Source: a virus
Virus record (IMG/VR): IMGVR_UViG_3300037316_000027
Location: 1 to 64,000 of that record
Direction: 5' to 3' (one strand)
DNA: 64,000 bases
Below the pieces are notes generated by a model. It was not told the origin of the DNA. It saw nothing but the letters and a program-made list of their open reading frames with translations, and searched no databases. Both the position numbers and the translations under genes were made by a program. This document shows, one piece after another, positions 2,921-58,378 of this stretch (positions are counted from its first letter, which is position 1; every line of letters begins with the position of its first letter).

Positions 2921-3100
2921 ATGATGCGACGCGCGAATAGCAACAGTCCGATGAACCCTGCCCCATTTCTGGGCGTGGGGGAGTTTGGCCGTCCCCGCTA
3001 CTCTCGGACAGTAGAGATCGAAGGTTCAAATCCTTCCGCCCCGACCATTCTCACAACATCGACTATTAGCGCCGCCGCGCAATCGCAAAGCTGGTCCTGA
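2921..3100 (+). CDS. putative sensor peptide reading through tRNA-Pro
   Basis: MMRRANSNSPMNPAPF-[tRNA-Pro]-ILTTSTISAAAQSQSWS*; stops 5 nt before tRNA-Trp; spacer codons almost all specify amino acids of the array's tRNAs. Confidence 0.5.
   Translation: MMRRANSNSPMNPAPFLGVGEFGRPRYSRTVEIEGSNPSAPTILTTSTISAAAQSQSWS
2969..3047 (+). tRNA. tRNA-Pro(CGG)
   Basis: CTACT-CTCGGAC-AGTAG anticodon arm, GGTTCAAATCC T arm, ACCA end. Confidence 0.9.
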
Positions 3101-3105
3101 TCTAT

Positions 3106-3179
3106 ACAGGATTGGTGTAGCGGTAGCACGGCGGTCTCCAAAACCGCTGGCCATGGTTCGAACCCATGATCCTGTGCCA
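3106..3179 (+). tRNA. tRNA-Trp(CCA)
   Basis: ACAGGAT/ATCCTGT-GCCA acceptor; GCGGT-CTCCAAA-ACCGC. Confidence 0.93.
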
Positions 3180-3180
3180 T

Positions 3181-3255
3181 GCGGGTTTGGTGTAACGGTA
3201 GCACAACGGGCTCTGAACCCGTTAGGTCAAGGTTCGAAACCTTGAGCCCGTGCCA
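3181..3255 (+). tRNA. tRNA-Gln(CTG)
   Basis: ACGGG-CTCTGAA-CCCGT; CAAGG-TTCGAAA-CCTTG; GCCA end. Confidence 0.92.
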
Positions 3256-3257
3256 AC

Positions 3258-3333
3258 GTCGATGTAGCTCAGCGGTAGAGCAATCCTTTCGTAAGGGGTA
3301 GGTCGCAGGTTCGATCCCATGCCATCGGCACCA
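3258..3333 (+). tRNA. tRNA-Thr(CGT)
   Basis: GTCGATG/CATCGGC-ACCA; ATCCT-TTCGTAA-GGGGT. Confidence 0.9.
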
Positions 3334-3337
3334 ATTC

Positions 3338-3414
3338 GCCAGTCTAGCTCAGTCAGGTAGAGCGCCGGGCTCATAATCCGGATGTCGTCGGTTCAAATCC
3401 CTCGGCTGGCACCA
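3338..3414 (+). tRNA. tRNA with CAT anticodon (elongator Met or Ile2)
   Basis: CCGGG-CTCATAA-TCCGG; G1-C72 is paired, so not an initiator. Confidence 0.88.
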
Positions 3415-3457
3415 ATCATCGGCAACTCGTGAGAGCTGCCGACATCTGATAACACAA

Positions 3458-3533
3458 GGGGCGATAGCTCAGATGGGAGAGCACCTGTTCTGCAAGCAGG
3501 GGGTCGCCGGTTCGAGGCCGGCTCGCTCCACCA
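3458..3533 (+). tRNA. tRNA-Ala(TGC)
   Basis: GGGGCGA/TCGCTCC with G3:U70; loop TC-TGC-AA. Confidence 0.92.
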
Positions 3534-3539
3534 AAGAAT

Positions 3540-3615
3540 GCCCCGTGTAGCTCAGCGGTAGAGCAAGCGGTCGATAACCGCTAGGTCGCTGGTTCAAATC
3601 CAGTCACGGGCACCA
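3540..3615 (+). tRNA. tRNA-Ile(GAT)
   Basis: AGCGG-TCGATAA-CCGCT; GGTTCAAATCC; ACCA end. Confidence 0.9.
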
Positions 3616-3632
3616 ACAAGGAGACGCGCGTC

Positions 3633-3707
3633 ATGTCATCAAGTAGTAGTCGATCGTTACGGAAGGGTGGCAGAGAGGCAATGCAGCGGCTTGCTAAGCC
3701 GTACTAG
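3633..3707 (+). CDS. Ser-rich leader peptide overlapping tRNA-Ser(GCT)
   Basis: AAGGAG SD (3618-3623), then ATG TCA TCA AGT AGT AGT CGA TCG TTA, continuing into the tRNA to TAG at 3705-3707. Confidence 0.6.
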   Translation: MSSSSSRSLRKGGREAMQRLAKPY

Positions 3708-3748
3708 GTTTGCGCCTAGCGTGTGTTCGATCCACACCCCTTCCGCCA
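3661..3748 (+). tRNA. tRNA-Ser(GCT)
   Basis: GGAAGGG/CCCTTCC-GCCA; GCGGC-TTGCTAA-GCCGT; long variable arm CTAGG/CCTAG. Confidence 0.93.
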
Positions 3749-3752
3749 GACT

Positions 3753-3839
3753 GGAGGGTGGCGTGTACGGTCGCACGAACGGTCCCGAAAACCGCGCCCG
3801 GCGCAAGCCGTGATGGTTCAATTCCTTCACCCTCCGCCA
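3753..3839 (+). tRNA. tRNA-Ser(CGA)
   Basis: GGAGGGT/ACCCTCC-GCCA; loop CC-CGA-AA; variable arm CGGC-GCAA-GCCG. Confidence 0.88.
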
Positions 3840-3843
3840 ATCC

Positions 3844-3918
3844 GCAGAGATAGCTCAGAGGTAGAGCGGCACGTTGAAGGCGTGCGCGTCAGTGGTTCGA
3901 TCCCATTTCTCTGCACCA
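3844..3918 (+). tRNA. tRNA-Phe(GAA)
   Basis: GCAGAGA/TCTCTGC-ACCA; GCACG-TTGAAGG-CGTGC. Confidence 0.9.
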
Positions 3919-3925
3919 CTGTTGT

Positions 3926-4001
3926 TTGGGGATAGCTCAGCCGGTAGAGCGACGCGCTGTTAACGCGTAGGTCGCAGGTTCGAACCCTGCTCCCCGAGCC
4001 A
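3926..4001 (+). tRNA. tRNA-Asn(GTT)
   Basis: TTGGGGA/TCCCCGA-GCCA; ACGCG-CTGTTAA-CGCGT. Confidence 0.93.
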
Positions 4002-10061: not shown

Positions 10062-10243
10062 CTTCTCGCGCTGCCCCGTTGAAAATTCATGCAAGTTGTC
10101 CAGCATCGATCGTGTCAAGAAAAACTTTTTGATGCAAGATACCCAATCAAACCGGGCATCTGATCCGCTATTCTATATCGAAACTGGAAAATCCAAAAAG
10201 TCGATTTGCTATAATGCCTCCATCGTAACAAATGGAGAGCACG

Positions 10244-10474
10244 ATGTACGACTACCCAGAGCTACCCGACTTCTGTCGGATACCGCAGGCCGAACGCAAG
10301 GCAGCGTGGAGGGGCCGCAAGCTGACGAGACAAGGATCGATGTTCGTCAAGCCGACGAAGGCGGAAGACGCAGCGACGCGCAAGTTGCGTCGGGAGATCG
10401 AAGCGTCCGAAGCCGCCAAGAAGGCAGCCCGGTTCGCGCGCCTCAAGGAGATGGCCGCCGAAAGGAAACGTTAA
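10244..10474 (+). CDS. small basic protein
   Basis: GGAGAG SD; TGCTATAAT extended -10 at about 10207-10215; YPELPDFC.I motif; C-terminal K/R/A helix. Confidence 0.65.
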   Translation: MYDYPELPDFCRIPQAERKAAWRGRKLTRQGSMFVKPTKAEDAATRKLRREIEASEAAKKAARFARLKEMAAERKR

Positions 10475-10493
10475 CCATCGTGCGAGACCCTCG

Positions 10494-10522
10494 TTGACAT
10501 TCTCAGGGACAAGCTTTAGGTT
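10494..10522 (+). promoter_or_regulatory. sigma70-type promoter of the large ncRNA
   Basis: TTGACA (10494-10499) - 17 nt - TAGGTT (10517-10522). Confidence 0.65.
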
Positions 10523-10528
10523 CGGGTG

Positions 10529-10863
10529 ACTGGAGCGGCCCAAGCGAAAACGGGATCAGCCAGTAGCTCGTGCCGCAAGGAGAACGCACTCCGATGAAGA
10601 ACTGAAACGCCGGCCACTCCGGGCCTGCCCTAGCTGGGACCCGGTAGGCGAGAGACAGATAGGGCGCGCTCCGGGAAATCTGGCCGGGGCGCGTAGCGAG
10701 AGGGACGCAGCTCAATAGACAAGGCCCAGTGCACATCGAACTGTGTTTTCCCGGTACGCGGCGTAGGGTGGTTGCCTACGGGACATAGGAGAGTAACTTC
10801 TCTCCGGGAACTACACATAGGAACCGCCCCGGAGATGATCTCTCCCCGGGGCGGTTCTGTTTT
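10529..10863 (+). ncRNA. large (~335 nt) multi-branched ncRNA, family unassigned
   Basis: Lies between a promoter and a terminator, has no credible ORF, and forms many stems (see findings). Confidence 0.7.
10821..10863 (+). terminator. intrinsic terminator at the convergence of the two transcription arms
   Basis: GAACCGCCCCGG...CCGGGGCGGTTC followed by TGTTTT. Confidence 0.8.
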
Positions 10864-10918
10864 GGGTACGTTCCGCCCCGATTTGGGGGCGGTTTCCCGG
10901 GGCTGGCGAGCCCGCCTG

Positions 10919-11473
10919 TTAGGCGGTCAGGCCGGAGGCTCCGGGAGCCGCGCCGGAAGCGGCAGGGCTCGCAGCGGCGGCGGCAGCCACGGCACCAGCG
11001 GCACCAGTAGCGGCCGAAGCGGCCGGGGCAACTGCACCCGGGGTCCCAGAAGCGTCGCTGGCAGCCGCCGCAGGGGCAGCCGCGCCAGTCGCGCCGGTAG
11101 CGGCCGGAGCCGGGGCAGCCGCGACAGCGGTAGCTACGGCGGCGGTCGCCGGGGTCAGGGCCGCGACAGCGGTCTGGGCAGCCTGAGTTCCAGCGACAAG
11201 GCGCGCAACCTGAGCCTCAATGGCTGGGTCGAGAGCCGTGCTGGAGCTGGCCACGGCAGCCGCGAGGGCAGCCGCGTCGGTCTGAAGGTCTCCGACCACG
11301 GTCGTCAGCTCGGCAACAACGCCGTCAACGGCAGCAGTCAGGTCAAGGATGGCTTGGTCGGTCATTTTCATTTCCTCTCGGATGGTAGCTCGGATGGTGC
11401 CGACGAGCCGTTCGGCAATGTGTTCCAAAATTCGGTCAGCGACGGCGTCGATTTCATGTTGCATCAATGTCAT
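10919..11473 (-). CDS. Ala-rich coiled-coil / low-complexity protein
   Basis: Heptad-like N-terminal half; A/P/T/G-rich tail. Confidence 0.65.
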   Translation of the reverse strand: MTLMQHEIDAVADRILEHIAERLVGTIRATIREEMKMTDQAILDLTAAVDGVVAELTTVVGDLQTDAAALAAAVASSSTALDPAIEAQVARLVAGTQAAQTAVAALTPATAAVATAVAAAPAPAATGATGAAAPAAAASDASGTPGAVAPAASAATGAAGAVAAAAAASPAASGAAPGASGLTA

Positions 11474-11555: not shown

Positions 11556-11813
11556 TCAGTGCAGACGATGTCCGCCGAAGTCGAAGCCATTGAGATCGGT
11601 GATGATCTGCGATCGGTGTAGCGTGTGCCCGACGCGGACCGCGACAAGCGGCCCTTCGATCTCAGCCTCCCAGAAGCGCAAGAACTTCATGAGCGCCGGA
11701 AAGTCCGGAAGCGCGTCATAGTTCTGCCAGATGAACTCCTGCAATATCGACAGACGATCCGGCATTCGATAGACGATGTGCGCCGTCACCAGACTAGTCT
11801 TTCCGTGCCACAT
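11556..11813 (-). CDS. usg: Usg-family protein
   Basis: LVTAHIVYRMPD..SILQEFIWQ.YD..PDFP.L.KFL.FW...IEGPL..VRV.H and C-terminal RLH match the alphaproteobacterial Usg pattern. Confidence 0.85.
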   Translation of the reverse strand: MWHGKTSLVTAHIVYRMPDRLSILQEFIWQNYDALPDFPALMKFLRFWEAEIEGPLVAVRVGHTLHRSQIITDLNGFDFGGHRLH

Positions 11814-13987: not shown

Positions 13988-14824
13988 TTATGCGGTAGCC
14001 GCCGGGATGGTCGGGAGAACGATGCCCGGCGGAAGCATGACGGATGCGTTCGCGCCTGATGCCTTGTTAGCGGAGAGAGCTTCGAAGACGACGCCCGAGA
14101 TAACGGTCAGGGCTGCAACGCCCGCCGTGTAATACCACTCGTATCCTGCCGTGTGTACGGCAGCGGCAGCCGCGAGAGTGCTGCCCGCCGTGGTCTTGGG
14201 GGCCGTGGTGCCGACGTGGATAGCTTTGGGCTGGACCAGATGCGACAGGTCGGCTGCCGCAGGGGCGGCGACCGGCGTACCACCCTTGGCAAGATGCAGA
14301 CAGTAGGTCTGAAGGTCCACTACGCGAGCGCCCCACCCGTTGCCGAATTCTCGCCACGCTTCGCCGCCACGGATGGCGTGCATGAAGTGCAGGCGCTCAG
14401 CGCACATGGCCTTGACGAAGACGCCGGGATCGGATTTCTTGATAGCGTCAAGCAGGGCCTGATCCATCACACCGCGTCCCGGTATTTTCAGAATGGCGCG
14501 AGCTGAGAGCACGCCGCGCGAAGAGCCAGAGTTGATGCCGTAGTCCAGCATGCAGGCATCGGGGCCGGCCGGGAGATCGTCATACCGAATGGCGGTGGCG
14601 TACTTCGTCTTGTAAATCTGTTCGGCGGGGGCCCGCGTCATCGCTTGAACGATGGGAGCCCACTTCGCCATGGAAGTCATCTTTTGACCCATGTGCTCCG
14701 CGAGATCATAGCACGTGATGCCGTACTTGGTCGGGCCGCCCGGGTCCTTCTTGTTCCAGCCGTAGCCGCCCTCATACTTGTCAATGATGCGGTCGATGGT
14801 TTGAATGTAGGTGATCACTGACAT
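13988..14824 (-). CDS. endolysin, glycoside hydrolase family 108
   Basis: EGGY...DPGGPTKYGIT, LPAGPD...DYGINSG, FGNGW..RV; hydrophobic C-terminus. Confidence 0.92.
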   Translation of the reverse strand: MSVITYIQTIDRIIDKYEGGYGWNKKDPGGPTKYGITCYDLAEHMGQKMTSMAKWAPIVQAMTRAPAEQIYKTKYATAIRYDDLPAGPDACMLDYGINSGSSRGVLSARAILKIPGRGVMDQALLDAIKKSDPGVFVKAMCAERLHFMHAIRGGEAWREFGNGWGARVVDLQTYCLHLAKGGTPVAAPAAADLSHLVQPKAIHVGTTAPKTTAGSTLAAAAAVHTAGYEWYYTAGVAALTVISGVVFEALSANKASGANASVMLPPGIVLPTIPAATA

Positions 14825-55395: not shown

Positions 55396-56672
55396 AGCTT
55401 CACACCTTTCTCGGTCGCGATCTTTCGCAGCTCGGTGCTGTAGTCAGTGTTGAGACGTTCCGTGTTCCGGCTTCCCAGTTTCGTGTAGAGCCGCTTTTCC
55501 GGATACCACCACGTTGCCTGCATATCGGCGATCGTCATATGATGTCCCGCATCCGCGAGCTTCTGTTGGGCCTGATCGAACACGTCTCGAATGTGCTGGC
55601 GCTGGCTTCCGTTGCCGGGCTGATCCTTGATGCCCCCGACCGCGAGTTCATACCGCTCGGCCGCGTATGTCAATTCCGATTTGGTCTTCGTTCCGGCGTC
55701 GAAGTCCGCGCGGTTGTCCTTAAAATCCTTGATATGGGCCAGACGAATGTCTGCGGCCAGCTTAACCATTCGGGGCTCAGTCGTCGGGATTTTCTGCCCG
55801 GCGGCCTTGAGCGCAGCAGTGAAGCGCGCCTTCGGCTTTTCTACGTCTACCGTCCCAGTCAGCGTGCCCGTGAGACGGCCCCAGCCGCGCATGAGCCACA
55901 TATCGGCGGTGAGAGGTTTGAAGTTTCCATTGAGGTTCTGATAAAATCCCTGTCCGATTTTCGGTCCCAAGATCGCGGAGCCATACATCTTGGCCCCCAT
56001 GTTTTCGCCGCTCACGGGCATGCCCATCTTGTCGAGATCGCCAACGGTGTATTCCTTGTCCAGAAACGCTTGCGCGCCCGCGACGCCCATGGTCCCAATC
56101 AGCTTGTTGAGCTTGTCGAAATTGCCGTTGATGCTGATCCCAGCCTTTCCGGCCTCCATGTCAGTCGGGAATTTCCCGGTCTTCTCAAAAATTCCATATG
56201 CCTTGTCGGCGAGGGCGGTGTTGATCTGCACGGTTTGGTTCTGGCTCGTGACCGCCAGCGCGGCGGTGAAAGCGAACTTCGCCGCCGGGTTGTCGGCCAT
56301 TTCCGGGTGCAGCTTTTCGGCGACGCCCATGGCATCCTTCATGCTGCTCGTGTACCAGTCCTCTGCGTTGCCGCCGCGCTTCAGCTCGTTCTCAATCTCT
56401 GAAGCGATGGCGCTCGAAACGATGTTATCCGCTTTCGCGTTCGGCCCCTCTTTCCCTTTCGGCTCTTCGATCACGCCGCCCGGGATGCCGAGCGCCTTGA
56501 GAGCGGCCTGCCCGCGCGCATTCAGCTCCTTGGCGATGTCCGGGTTGCTGCGCGAGCCCGGTTTCGCCATGGTAGGATCATTCAGGATCGAGTTGACGGT
56601 GAGCTTGTCGTAAGCTCCGCCCGCCGTCCACTCTCCGTGCGCATCGCGCGGCTCGTCAGGATTGAAGGTCAC
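55392..56672 (-). CDS. putative capsid-cargo protein with an HhH DNA-glycosylase-like domain
   Basis: N-terminal NPDEPRDAHGEW; DWY, LAVTSQ, LGPKIG..FY.NL, TADMW..R, MQA.WW. Confidence 0.55.
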   Translation of the reverse strand: MTFNPDEPRDAHGEWTAGGAYDKLTVNSILNDPTMAKPGSRSNPDIAKELNARGQAALKALGIPGGVIEEPKGKEGPNAKADNIVSSAIASEIENELKRGGNAEDWYTSSMKDAMGVAEKLHPEMADNPAAKFAFTAALAVTSQNQTVQINTALADKAYGIFEKTGKFPTDMEAGKAGISINGNFDKLNKLIGTMGVAGAQAFLDKEYTVGDLDKMGMPVSGENMGAKMYGSAILGPKIGQGFYQNLNGNFKPLTADMWLMRGWGRLTGTLTGTVDVEKPKARFTAALKAAGQKIPTTEPRMVKLAADIRLAHIKDFKDNRADFDAGTKTKSELTYAAERYELAVGGIKDQPGNGSQRQHIRDVFDQAQQKLADAGHHMTIADMQATWWYPEKRLYTKLGSRNTERLNTDYSTELRKIATEKGVKL

Positions 56673-58378
56673 GCGCCGCCCTTCGTCTTGCCCGCTGACG
56701 CGCCCTTCTTGCCGACTTTACGCTTCAGAGGAACAGGTGACCCACGCGTGTAGCCCTTCGCACGTGCGGTCGGCACAATCGGCACGTTCTGATTTGGCGG
56801 TGTAGCGCCTGCGGGGGCGGCCGGTGGGGCGGTCGGGGCTGGTGGTGTAGTGCCGCCGTCGCTCGGTGGCGGACCCGCGACTGCGCTGAGATCAGTATCC
56901 AAGAAAGTATCATCGGTGACAGACTGCCCAAAGGGGCCGACCATGGTCCCGAGCATCGACGCCGCTTCTTCCTCGATCTGATTGTTCTCTTCTTCAAAGT
57001 CCATCTCCGTCATGTCGTTCATCTGCATCATGCGATGCATCGAACGGAGTGACAAGGGCAGTCCGAGCTGCTTGGCCTGCATGAACGCGAGCAGCGCGGC
57101 ACCAGCGACAGTCTGATCGGCGAAGTCCGTGGTCGGCTTGACCGATACTTCATCGGGGTCTTCCCCGACCCACTCCGCGCAATACTTAAGCGCGGTCTCC
57201 AGTCCCTTGCCGGCGCACTGGGCGACGGATGAAATCGTGGTCGTGCGAGCCGCGACGCGAATACGGAGGGCTTCGCCGCTCTCACCGCGCGCGTTGCCGA
57301 CATCCAAGAAGGCCACACCGAGCGAAGCGGCTTCGTCCTGATCGCTCTTGAGCGACTGACGCATCTCGCCAAGACCGGCGGCGGAGACGCCGATGTATTT
57401 CGCATCGCCATCGATACGCAGATCGATGACGCCCTTGTTGCCGACGCGGAGTTTATCCGGCGCGGCTTCATCGACGTTGCCACCGATGATGACGAGCGTG
57501 TTCTGTCCTTGCAGGTAAAGCGTTTGCCGGTAGTCGGCCTCGCCCCGGTAGATAGCCAGAGCGAGGTTCGACAGGCCAAGAAGTGGGGACACTTCCGGTT
57601 CGGGTACGAGATCGTTTGCGCCGATGAAGACGAACGGGATGTCGTCGAGTGCGCGACCGCCGATCGACGGGAAAATAAAATCTTCCATGATGGGCATGGA
57701 GCTGTCATTGACTTTCACGGCGACAGCGTAGGGCGATCCCTCCGGCGGGCGCTCCCAGCCGCTCTCAAGGCTCTCGGGACCGCCGCGCGTGAGCACGCGA
57801 TACTTGCGTTCGGTCTTCCACGTAAAGCCCTCGCGGCGAAAACCGCTCTCGTCCAGCACGACGAGATCGAGCATGTTGCGGCCCTCGTTAAGGCGTCCCG
57901 CGTCCCAGTTGATGATCCGCATCGGCTCGTAGAATGACAGGTACGGGGTCGCCTTGTCGATATCGACGCCCTGCGGTGCGTCCGCAAGCAGCCCGCAGCG
58001 CCCATACAGGAGTTGCGCGACGTTGATCCGGCGAAGCAACATCTGGAGCCCCTCGCCTTGGATTGTCGCCTTATCCATCATGGTCTGAAGACGCGGAGGC
58101 AGCGTGATCACGGCGGGCTTGTTATGCATTATTCCAACCATTGCCTTCACGGCATCCTTGACAACGTCGTGGAAGTAGGCGCGCATCAAGTACGCTTCGT
58201 AGTCGCGCCAGCCGGGAGAGCTTGGGGTCGTCATTCCATCCTGCACCATGCCCTCGGTCGCCGGGAGGTAGTCGAGACGCTTCGACTTGACGGCGCGCTC
58301 GCCTTGATAGGTGTCCGAGAGCTGGAGCCATTCGCCCAGTCTTTCTACGTACTCGGGATGCTTGTCTGGCAATGCCAT
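56669..58378 (-). CDS. portal protein (DUF4055 type)
   Basis: HPEY, G...VK....YLP, Y..YL.RA, GR.GLL.D.P, IINW, IPFVF, ESGEALRIR. Confidence 0.92.
   Translation of the reverse strand: MALPDKHPEYVERLGEWLQLSDTYQGERAVKSKRLDYLPATEGMVQDGMTTPSSPGWRDYEAYLMRAYFHDVVKDAVKAMVGIMHNKPAVITLPPRLQTMMDKATIQGEGLQMLLRRINVAQLLYGRCGLLADAPQGVDIDKATPYLSFYEPMRIINWDAGRLNEGRNMLDLVVLDESGFRREGFTWKTERKYRVLTRGGPESLESGWERPPEGSPYAVAVKVNDSSMPIMEDFIFPSIGGRALDDIPFVFIGANDLVPEPEVSPLLGLSNLALAIYRGEADYRQTLYLQGQNTLVIIGGNVDEAAPDKLRVGNKGVIDLRIDGDAKYIGVSAAGLGEMRQSLKSDQDEAASLGVAFLDVGNARGESGEALRIRVAARTTTISSVAQCAGKGLETALKYCAEWVGEDPDEVSVKPTTDFADQTVAGAALLAFMQAKQLGLPLSLRSMHRMMQMNDMTEMDFEEENNQIEEEAASMLGTMVGPFGQSVTDDTFLDTDLSAVAGPPPSDGGTTPPAPTAPPAAPAGATPPNQNVPIVPTARAKGYTRGSPVPLKRKVGKKGASAGKTKGGA

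Follow-up and report, generated by a model that had tools for sequence, protein, structure and literature searches.

The 444-nucleotide (nt) gap between two convergent genes at positions 10475–10918 of a peat soil phage genome is a real, non-coding region, and its sequence makes it likely that the gap holds a complete promoter-to-terminator unit. The genome is the 126,820-bp virus record IMGVR_UViG_3300037316_000027 (G000), and the window analysed here is its first 64 kb (64,000 nt). The reading that we favour, and to which we give about an even chance, is that the gap is an accessory phage non-coding RNA (ncRNA) gene of ~335 nt, mosaic in its make-up, made early, with a three-way junction as its core and acting in trans. 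An earlier note, made from the sequence of the window alone, had proposed a highly structured RNA at this place, with its own promoter and terminator, where the two transcription arms meet, and had put it forward as a candidate new large ncRNA class. The location was confirmed, with + strand genes stopping at 10474 and − strand genes running from 10919.

A non-coding gap between two transcription arms

No + strand open reading frame (ORF) of at least 30 amino acids is found in the gap before 10772 (that is, in 10475–10771), and the − strand ORFs of the gap (77, 62 and 33 amino acids) have a GC content at the second codon position of 0.59–0.64, against 0.37–0.51 in most of the genes sampled. 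The codon-position GC pattern of real genes is absent from all frames of the gap, and a 1-nt indel inside the conserved junction module described below was also counted toward a non-coding region. A three-codon frame (ATG AAG AAC TGA within 10594–10608), which has AAGGAG 11 nt ahead of it, was set aside for lack of support.

At gathering scores, Rfam 15 gave 10 matches in the window, all of them tRNAs (2969–3998), leaving the candidate region without a match, and in the remaining genome it gave no match to the candidate RNA. When the threshold was relaxed to E≤10 over 10350–11000, five matches appeared, all far under gathering and none to a riboswitch, CRISPR-DR or tracrRNA family; the best of them, ftsZ-DE (28.9 bits, gathering score 72.2), covers a hairpin and the terminator. 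A search at E≤1 on the loci L007, L012, L027 and L028 likewise gave no match to the candidate RNA. ARAGORN found 10 tRNAs and no transfer-messenger RNA (tmRNA) in the window and was blank over 10494–10863. Together, these data uphold the earlier note in describing the region as non-coding and as belonging to no known RNA family, the Rfam families covered including RNase P, tmRNA, SRP, 6S, cobalamin, GOLLD, ROOL, Y RNA, CRISPR-DR and tracrRNA.

A recurrent promoter motif and a shared terminator

The exact string TTGACA-N17-TAGGTT occurs three times in the 126,820 bp of the genome, against 0.006 occurrences expected from base composition. One copy opens the candidate unit at 10494 (+), with TAGGTT at 10517; a second (92544–92572, +) lies ahead of an 87-amino-acid ORF; and the third (97114–97142, −) lies just upstream of a permuted, alpha-type tmRNA. 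Among the related contigs described below, L006/L007 carry TTGACC-N17-TAGGTC at the same slot and L012 carries TTGCAC-N17-TAGGTT. The motif is thus kept at the slot in two of the four distinct syntenic relatives, with the hexamers and the 17-nt spacing held and the spacer sequence diverged, and the same promoter type is found elsewhere in related contigs (L013/L014 and L017). The promoter is, as far as sequence can tell, real. The TTAACC motif that precedes it (Table 1) follows a different ORF in L007, so that it goes with the RNA slot instead of with p80, the gene that closes the early arm; GTTAACCATCG may be a site for a regulator or resemble an UP element.

At the other end of the unit, the stem of the predicted terminator (10820–10857) is followed by TCTGTTTT. 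The terminator is usable in both directions, better on the + strand, and homologous terminators are present in all four distinct syntenic relatives (L007, L008, L010/L011 and L012). The sequence beyond it is also shared, 10861–10918 being 89.8% identical to L010/L011. Of the two signals named in the earlier note, the promoter has been strengthened, by its recurrence in the genome, by the copy ahead of the tmRNA and by its retention in relatives, and the terminator has been corroborated by its 13-bp stem, its U tract and its homologues.

The tmRNA that shares this promoter motif is of the permuted, two-piece alphaproteobacterial type and lies at ~96692–97033 (−) of the genome (L027 1193–1534; L035 12692–13033). 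Besides its scores of 98.7 bits with RF04321 (gathering 47) and 95.2 bits with RF01849 (gathering 50), it shows a CCA end and a tag frame that closes with LAA. A TTGACA-N17-TAGGTT promoter of its own precedes it and a clean terminator follows; ARAGORN made no call on it. Phage two-piece tmRNAs have appeared in print, mostly from marine phages according to excerpts of a published study (PMC9004378), and the present one comes from a peat phage.

A conserved three-way-junction module

The only part of the candidate RNA with visible constraint is a predicted three-way junction of ~70 nt. Positions 10743–10808 are 92.4% identical to L006/L007 over 66 nt, against 68–70% in the coding flanks, and the local alignment of the module between the window and L007 scores 108, where the maximum for shuffled sequences is 29. 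Six differences separate the window from L007 in this module. Two make up a full compensatory pair in P2 (A-U to G-C) and one falls in a loop; the other three, a T to C, a T to A and an inserted G, are in P1, where they keep or lengthen the pairing in L007. All of the differences lie in a loop or bulge or preserve pairing, and the strands of the junction do not vary between the window and L007. The compensatory pair is one of 21 predicted pairs in the module. The module itself has moved: it directly follows the promoter in L007 and stands just before the terminator in the window, with 8 nt separating it from the terminator stem in the window and ~130 nt separating it from the terminator in L007.

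Further copies were sought in several ways. A covariance model of the junction, run over 229,312 bases, recovered only its own three source sequences, and three pattern scans of viral contigs gave no matches. The single match from one scan of genome contigs lies inside a Stenotrophomonas coding region, without the junction, and was taken as chance. When the gap was searched against all loci with nhmmer and blastn, it found the module in L006/L007 and the terminator region and nothing else; six related virus records, searched whole, yielded nothing real, and blastn and megablast searches against 50,697 phage records gave no match. Of the covariation that the earlier note had proposed as a check, the comparison gave one compensatory pair in the junction module and no multi-helix covariation in diverse genomes. 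Its candidate new large ncRNA class did not survive: the body is accessory and mosaic, and only the ~70-nt module is held in common with one relative, at a different position. A new, widespread structured RNA class is not supported.

The + strand was kept as the likelier functional strand because the promoter points that way, the U tract is better on +, and two central hairpins contain three G-U pairs on + that would be C-A mismatches on −.

A mosaic body in a variable slot

All of the stems named in the earlier note were found at or near where it had placed them. In the 5′ part these are ACTGG (10529) with CCAGT (10560) and GTGC (10570) with GCAC (10586). The central part has GGGCCT (10621) with AGGCCC (10722), GCCTGCC (10623) with GGTAGGC (10643), which includes one G-U pair, and GCGCGCTCCGG (10664) with CCGGGGCGCGT (10684), which includes two. 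The junction and its surroundings have TGTG (10742) with CACA (10814), TTCCCGG (10748) with CCGGGAA (10804), CGTAGG (10762) with CCTACG (10775) and GGAGAG (10788) with CTCTCC (10800). The linker words GCGAGAG (10648 and 10696) and GATGAAGAACTGAAAC (10593) are also present. As a set of helices the proposal needs one correction, in that CTCTCC (10800–10805) and CCGGGAA (10804–10810) overlap by two bases and cannot both pair at full length. The minimum free energy (MFE) fold of the full length did not recover most of the named stems, most of which are without comparative support; only the local fold of 10740–10863 recovered the proposed three-way junction and the terminator.

Relatives were collected through the flanking genes. 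A search with the alignment of p80 found 16 loci (2 viral, 14 metagenome), where the p80 protein alone found no viral-contig locus; p184, the convergent gene, found one viral-contig locus on its own, and the alignment of the Usg-like protein found seven viral loci. Both p80 and p184 are present in L006, L007, L010, L011 and L012, and L008 ends just after the terminator. Since L006 equals L007 and L010 equals L011 at this region, there are four distinct syntenic relatives. In the L007 type, p80 is followed by an extra 181-amino-acid ORF, after which come the promoter, a ~250-nt RNA and the terminator, and its modules are re-ordered relative to the window. Between promoter and terminator, L012 has an unrelated RNA of ~130 nt; in L008 only a −35 element is left, joined straight to the terminator, and the body is missing; and L010/L011 have an extra 286-amino-acid ORF followed by terminators only. 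A fifth relative, L002 (with L020 and L021), found through p184, has other genes and a plain terminator. Given that related phages carry another RNA, a further protein gene or nothing at all here, the slot is a cargo-swap site and the RNA an accessory one.

The cargo itself was also inspected. The RNA of L012 (3247–3465) has a 5′ hairpin, an ATGAAG...CTGAAA stretch like that at 10594–10608 of the window and a terminator, with a z-score of −2.97 and no Rfam match. The extra ORFs that stand between p80 or a GNAT gene and the terminator (L007 3228–3773, 181 amino acids; L010 1057–1917, 286 amino acids; L002 3703–4149, 148 amino acids) match PHROGs without known function or nothing. No homologue of the 5′ domain (10529–10593) was found in any locus, and an apparent likeness of the central domain to L007 3961–4003 was rejected, its score of 25 falling within the range for shuffled sequences (mean 20.1, maximum 29).

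Contigs from four of 10 listed sequencing runs (X2, X4, X5 and X6) were compared with the region. One X2 contig spans 10412–10854 with a single difference; it represents a near-identical strain and is uninformative. The X4 contig matches 10594–10807 with no substitutions and one inserted A after 10708, and the X5 contig matches 10594–10647 exactly. To the left of 10594 neither resembles the window, so that a breakpoint is shared between two runs from two studies. A further X2 contig carries a diverged junction, with five differences in 10750–10808, in another context. These matches fit module swapping with one joint at 10594.

Table 1. Features of the gap and its two flanking genes, in window coordinates.
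Feature	Position	Strand	Basis and remarks
p80, small basic protein, final gene of the + (early) arm	10232–10474	+	ORF; stop codon within GTTAACC motif
GTTAACCATCG, conserved motif ~20 nt upstream of −35, candidate site	10470–10480	+	TTAACC invariant in window, L007, L012 and L008
Predicted promoter: TTGACA (−35), 17-nt spacer, TAGGTT (−10)	10494–10522	+	Recurrent motif; predicted start near 10529
Variable 5′ domain with ACTGG/CCAGT and GTGC/GCAC stems	10529–10593	+	z −0.51; X4/X5 contigs differ left of 10594
Purine-rich single-stranded stretch ATGAAGAACTGAAAC	10594–10608	+	Left edge of block common to X4 and X5
Central domain, closing helix GGGCCT/AGGCCC and two internal hairpins	10609–10732	+	z −0.32 (+), −0.13 (−)
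Predicted three-way-junction module: P1, P2 (CGTAGG/CCTACG), P3 (GGAGAG/CTCTCC)	10743–10812	+	~70 nt; conserved in L006/L007
Predicted intrinsic terminator, 13-bp GC-rich stem (10820–10857) then UCUGUUUU	10820–10863	+	Sequence and folds; homologous in relatives
Second GC-rich hairpin, CCGCCCC/GGGGCGG	10871–10895		Between terminator and stop codon of convergent gene
p184, 184 amino acids, convergent gene, final gene of the − (late) arm	10919–11473	−	ORF; homologues in L002, L006/L007, L010/L011 and L012

How the unit may work, and what else it may be

In the reading that we favour, host RNA polymerase would start at the sigma-70-type promoter (10494–10522), which is of the same type as that of the phage tmRNA, and transcription would run rightward from ~10529 and halt at the strong terminator (10820–10863) before the incoming late operon. 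The RNA would be a mosaic of hairpin modules exchanged among related phages. Its functional core would be the junction (10743–10812), the sole module under visible constraint, perhaps as a protein-binding or stabilising fold, and the purine-rich single-stranded linkers, such as 10594–10608, would be candidate pairing sites. The RNA would then act in trans, as a regulator or a decoy, in early infection. The comparisons given above show the non-coding nature of the gap, the two signals with their conservation, and the conservation of the module; transcription, the functional strand and the role of the RNA are what we infer from them, and the candidate looks like an ordinary, fast-changing and narrowly distributed phage RNA gene. 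Positions 10596–10608 have a 13-nt perfect complement at 95838–95850 (+) of the genome, inside an ORF (95743–96075). The site lies ~30 codons into a small membrane-protein gene, not at its start, and the match may be chance.

Several observations weigh against this reading. By comparison with dinucleotide shuffles, the 370-nt stretch from promoter to terminator has a z-score of −2.27 on + and −3.56 on −, and most of this comes from the terminator, because for the terminator-free body (10529–10815) the value shrinks to −1.23 on +, where 24 of 200 shuffles fold equally well, and to −1.58 on −, where 16 of 200 do. The RNA body is not stable beyond chance, and the description 'highly structured' in the earlier note does not hold for it or for its domains (z −0.32, −0.51 and −1.07). 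The junction folds better on the − strand (z −3.43 in the window, −4.12 in L007) than on the + strand (−1.07 and −1.91); its structure rests on a single compensatory pair between the only two distinct module sequences compared, for which RNAalifold prefers a different + strand topology and outer helix. A generic scan for consensus promoters and terminators called neither at the locus, the promoter having been missed because TAGGTT matches TATAAT at only three of six positions. The RNA body is missing or unrelated in three of the four distinct syntenic relatives and in L002, so the locus is dispensable. Finally, all 10 of the listed sequencing runs are contig sets, and none is recorded as RNA.

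A first rival is that the unit is transcribed but its body has no function of its own, the promoter–terminator pair serving, for example, to insulate the early and late arms or to buffer collisions where their transcription meets, and the body being a fast-evolving filler of hairpin remnants. We consider this possible, if on the doubtful side. It would account for a promoter and terminator that are kept while the body is not, for the L008 arrangement in which the −35 element adjoins the terminator directly, for a body no more stable than its shuffles and for the re-ordering of modules between the window and L007. It sits poorly with the junction, a 92% island in a 68–70% background whose changes preserve pairing, and with the recurrence of the 10594–10807 block in a contig of another study, since filler should not persist in this way. 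An intergenic spacer from which nothing functional is made, its GC-rich hairpins due to chance and its terminator serving the flanking operons, is distinctly unlikely. The body z-scores near −1, the empty generic promoter scan and the absence of the locus from several relatives speak for it; it leaves unexplained three exact copies of a two-block, 12-base motif where 0.006 are expected, one of them driving a tmRNA, as well as hexamers kept across diverged spacers and the conservation island of the junction.

Two further explanations concern the junction. It might work on the − strand and serve the late operon as a 3′ untranslated region (UTR) or a read-through element, such as an exonuclease block, with the + strand promoter unrelated to it. 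The − strand z-scores given above, an MFE topology that is the same in both phages (ensemble frequency 0.41 in L007) and a further 5 bp of helix, with two G-U pairs, which cannot form on + all speak for this, yet we hold it to be unlikely: seen from the late operon, the module lies beyond a bidirectional terminator in both phages, no − strand promoter is seen in the sequence between module and terminator, the extra helix is invariant and so offers no covariation test, and the G-U pairs of the central hairpins favour +. The junction might instead be a sensor (aptamer) that gates the adjacent terminator. A transcript ending at 10841 is predicted to form a helix of ~10 bp between CUUCUCUCCGG and CCGGAGAUGA (duplex energy −17.6 kcal/mol), that is, between the junction 3′ strands and the terminator 5′ strand, whereas the full-length piece folds into junction plus terminator. 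When unfolded, the junction would thus pair with the terminator and allow antisense read-through into the late and lysis genes; it would be a new sensor fold choosing between termination and continued transcription from the strong early promoter, in which a long antisense RNA would run through p184, the Usg-like gene, genes for membrane proteins and the endolysin gene (13988–14824). The 8-nt distance to the terminator stem, the alternative helix and the invariant junction strands fit such a gate, and if it were true it would be an RNA-gated brake on late gene expression. We nevertheless judge it very unlikely, both as a gate and as a new sensor fold, in view of the absence of any riboswitch family at E≤10 in Rfam, of a next gene that is convergent and not co-directional, of a spacing that is not kept in L007 (~130 nt) and of a second hairpin after the terminator. 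The helix may also reflect repeated GGAGA/UCUCC words, which occur in the terminators of junction-less relatives as well.

Comparison with known systems

One comparison is with the phage's own tmRNA, which shares the promoter motif of the candidate and its order of parts, from promoter through stable RNA to intrinsic terminator; it differs in scoring well over Rfam gathering, where the candidate matches nothing. Small RNAs (sRNAs) of the DapZ and MicL type are transcribed from a promoter of their own, located where an upstream gene ends, and share the terminator of that gene; lambda oop RNA is a further comparison. The candidate resembles these in that its promoter begins ~20 nt past the p80 stop codon and in that the RNA would end at a terminator which also closes the early arm. 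It differs, as a putative sRNA, in a much longer and more branched body. Terminating riboswitches can have three-way-junction aptamers, the purine class being an example. With these the candidate shares a three-helix junction with conserved joining strands, directly upstream of a terminator, and a possible alternative helix, but it has no Rfam match and no downstream gene to regulate, and the spacing is not kept in L007. On these grounds, and with the next gene running toward the unit, a riboswitch was rejected despite the alternative helix.

In virulent Pseudomonas phages, ncRNAs in intergenic regions and UTRs have been mapped by ONT-cappable-seq and Northern blots (PMC10914365). As described in excerpts of that study, these RNAs are short to mid-size, bounded by promoters, terminators or both, kept only among close relatives and mostly without known function, all of which is reminiscent of the present candidate (PMC10914365). 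The candidate is instead predicted from sequence signals, at ~335 nt stands at the long end of the range reported in the same excerpts, and lies at a convergent junction and not in a 5′ UTR (PMC10914365).

Phage-borne decoys of CRISPR systems offer another comparison. Excerpts of a recent preprint describe viral single guide RNAs (sgRNAs) which disarm Cas9 by mimicking guide RNAs, as well as solitary-repeat RNAs (bioRxiv 10.64898/2026.06.01.729453). Like the candidate, the viral sgRNAs of those excerpts are phage-borne and accessory, with their own promoter and a rho-independent terminator (bioRxiv 10.64898/2026.06.01.729453). The candidate bodies, in contrast, are unlike 30 type II cas9-upstream regions, and no CRISPR-DR or tracrRNA family is found for them in Rfam. 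The cas9 sample consisted of 30 loci from the 40 of 401 Pseudomonadota genomes that carry cas9, and the host's own CRISPR system is not among them; against these 30 loci, blastn and nhmmer gave no match at E<0.1. When the three RNA bodies were compared with the cas9-upstream regions after removal of their terminators, the best z-score was 2.3. A tracrRNA-like decoy was rejected when an apparent likeness of parts of the L007 RNA to the tail of type II-C trans-activating CRISPR RNAs (tracrRNAs) failed its controls: the whole L007 RNA scored 36 against a real tracrRNA region located in L038 (shuffle maximum 34), and without its terminator it gave a z-score of 1.5, with 3 of 40 shuffles as good.

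Two other candidates were dropped for want of a partner. A Y RNA would need a Ro60/Rsr (TROVE) protein, for which PF05731 gave no matches in the 126,820-bp genome; RtcB is present. An attP core would need a tyrosine integrase, for which PF00589 gave no matches in the genome.

Flanking genes and host

On the early side, the product of p80 has no Pfam or PHROG match. Its codon-position GC is 0.58/0.51/0.77, and 19 homologues were found (alignment A1). The N-termini of this family share the conserved motif (I/L)P(D/A)FLRIPQ, which in homologue P0011 reads IPAFLR and resembles the C-terminal peptide of FtsZ. The string IPAFLR was found in 8 papers, and most of the seven titles or opening lines of abstracts listed name FtsZ or division proteins. 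The p80 protein may be a mimic with which the phage competes for the partners of FtsZ.

On the late side, p184 gave nothing over the Pfam cut-off. The 85-amino-acid protein encoded beside it (11556–11813, −) belongs to the Usg-like family (PF06233, 90.2 bits) and is kept in all syntenic relatives; it is an odd passenger for the end of a phage late operon. The − arm continues with tail, portal and terminase genes to ~60 kb, the portal and terminase genes lying at 56–60 kb. The portal protein (56669–58378, −) is at most 46.9% identical to that of any cultured phage, with Roseobacter phage RDJL3 and Alphaproteobacteria phage PhiJL001 as its best matches. Together with the alpha-type tmRNA and the Usg-like gene, these portal matches point to an alphaproteobacterial host.

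Elsewhere in the window, an RtcB RNA ligase gene (1376–2440; PF01139, 218 bits) lies just upstream of the array of 10 tRNAs (2969–4001), and RtcB, the tRNA array and the tmRNA amount to a sizeable RNA and translation toolkit for a phage.

Meaning for the phage group

No long-standing question is opened up here. Should the RNA be made, this would be one more lytic phage of soil Alphaproteobacteria with an RNA gene of its own, in addition to its tRNA array, RtcB and tmRNA. The TTGACA-N17-TAGGTT motif should be usable as a marker of early transcription units in this uncultured phage group, and, as swap slots often carry host-takeover or counter-defence functions, the small junction would be a reasonable target for work at the bench.

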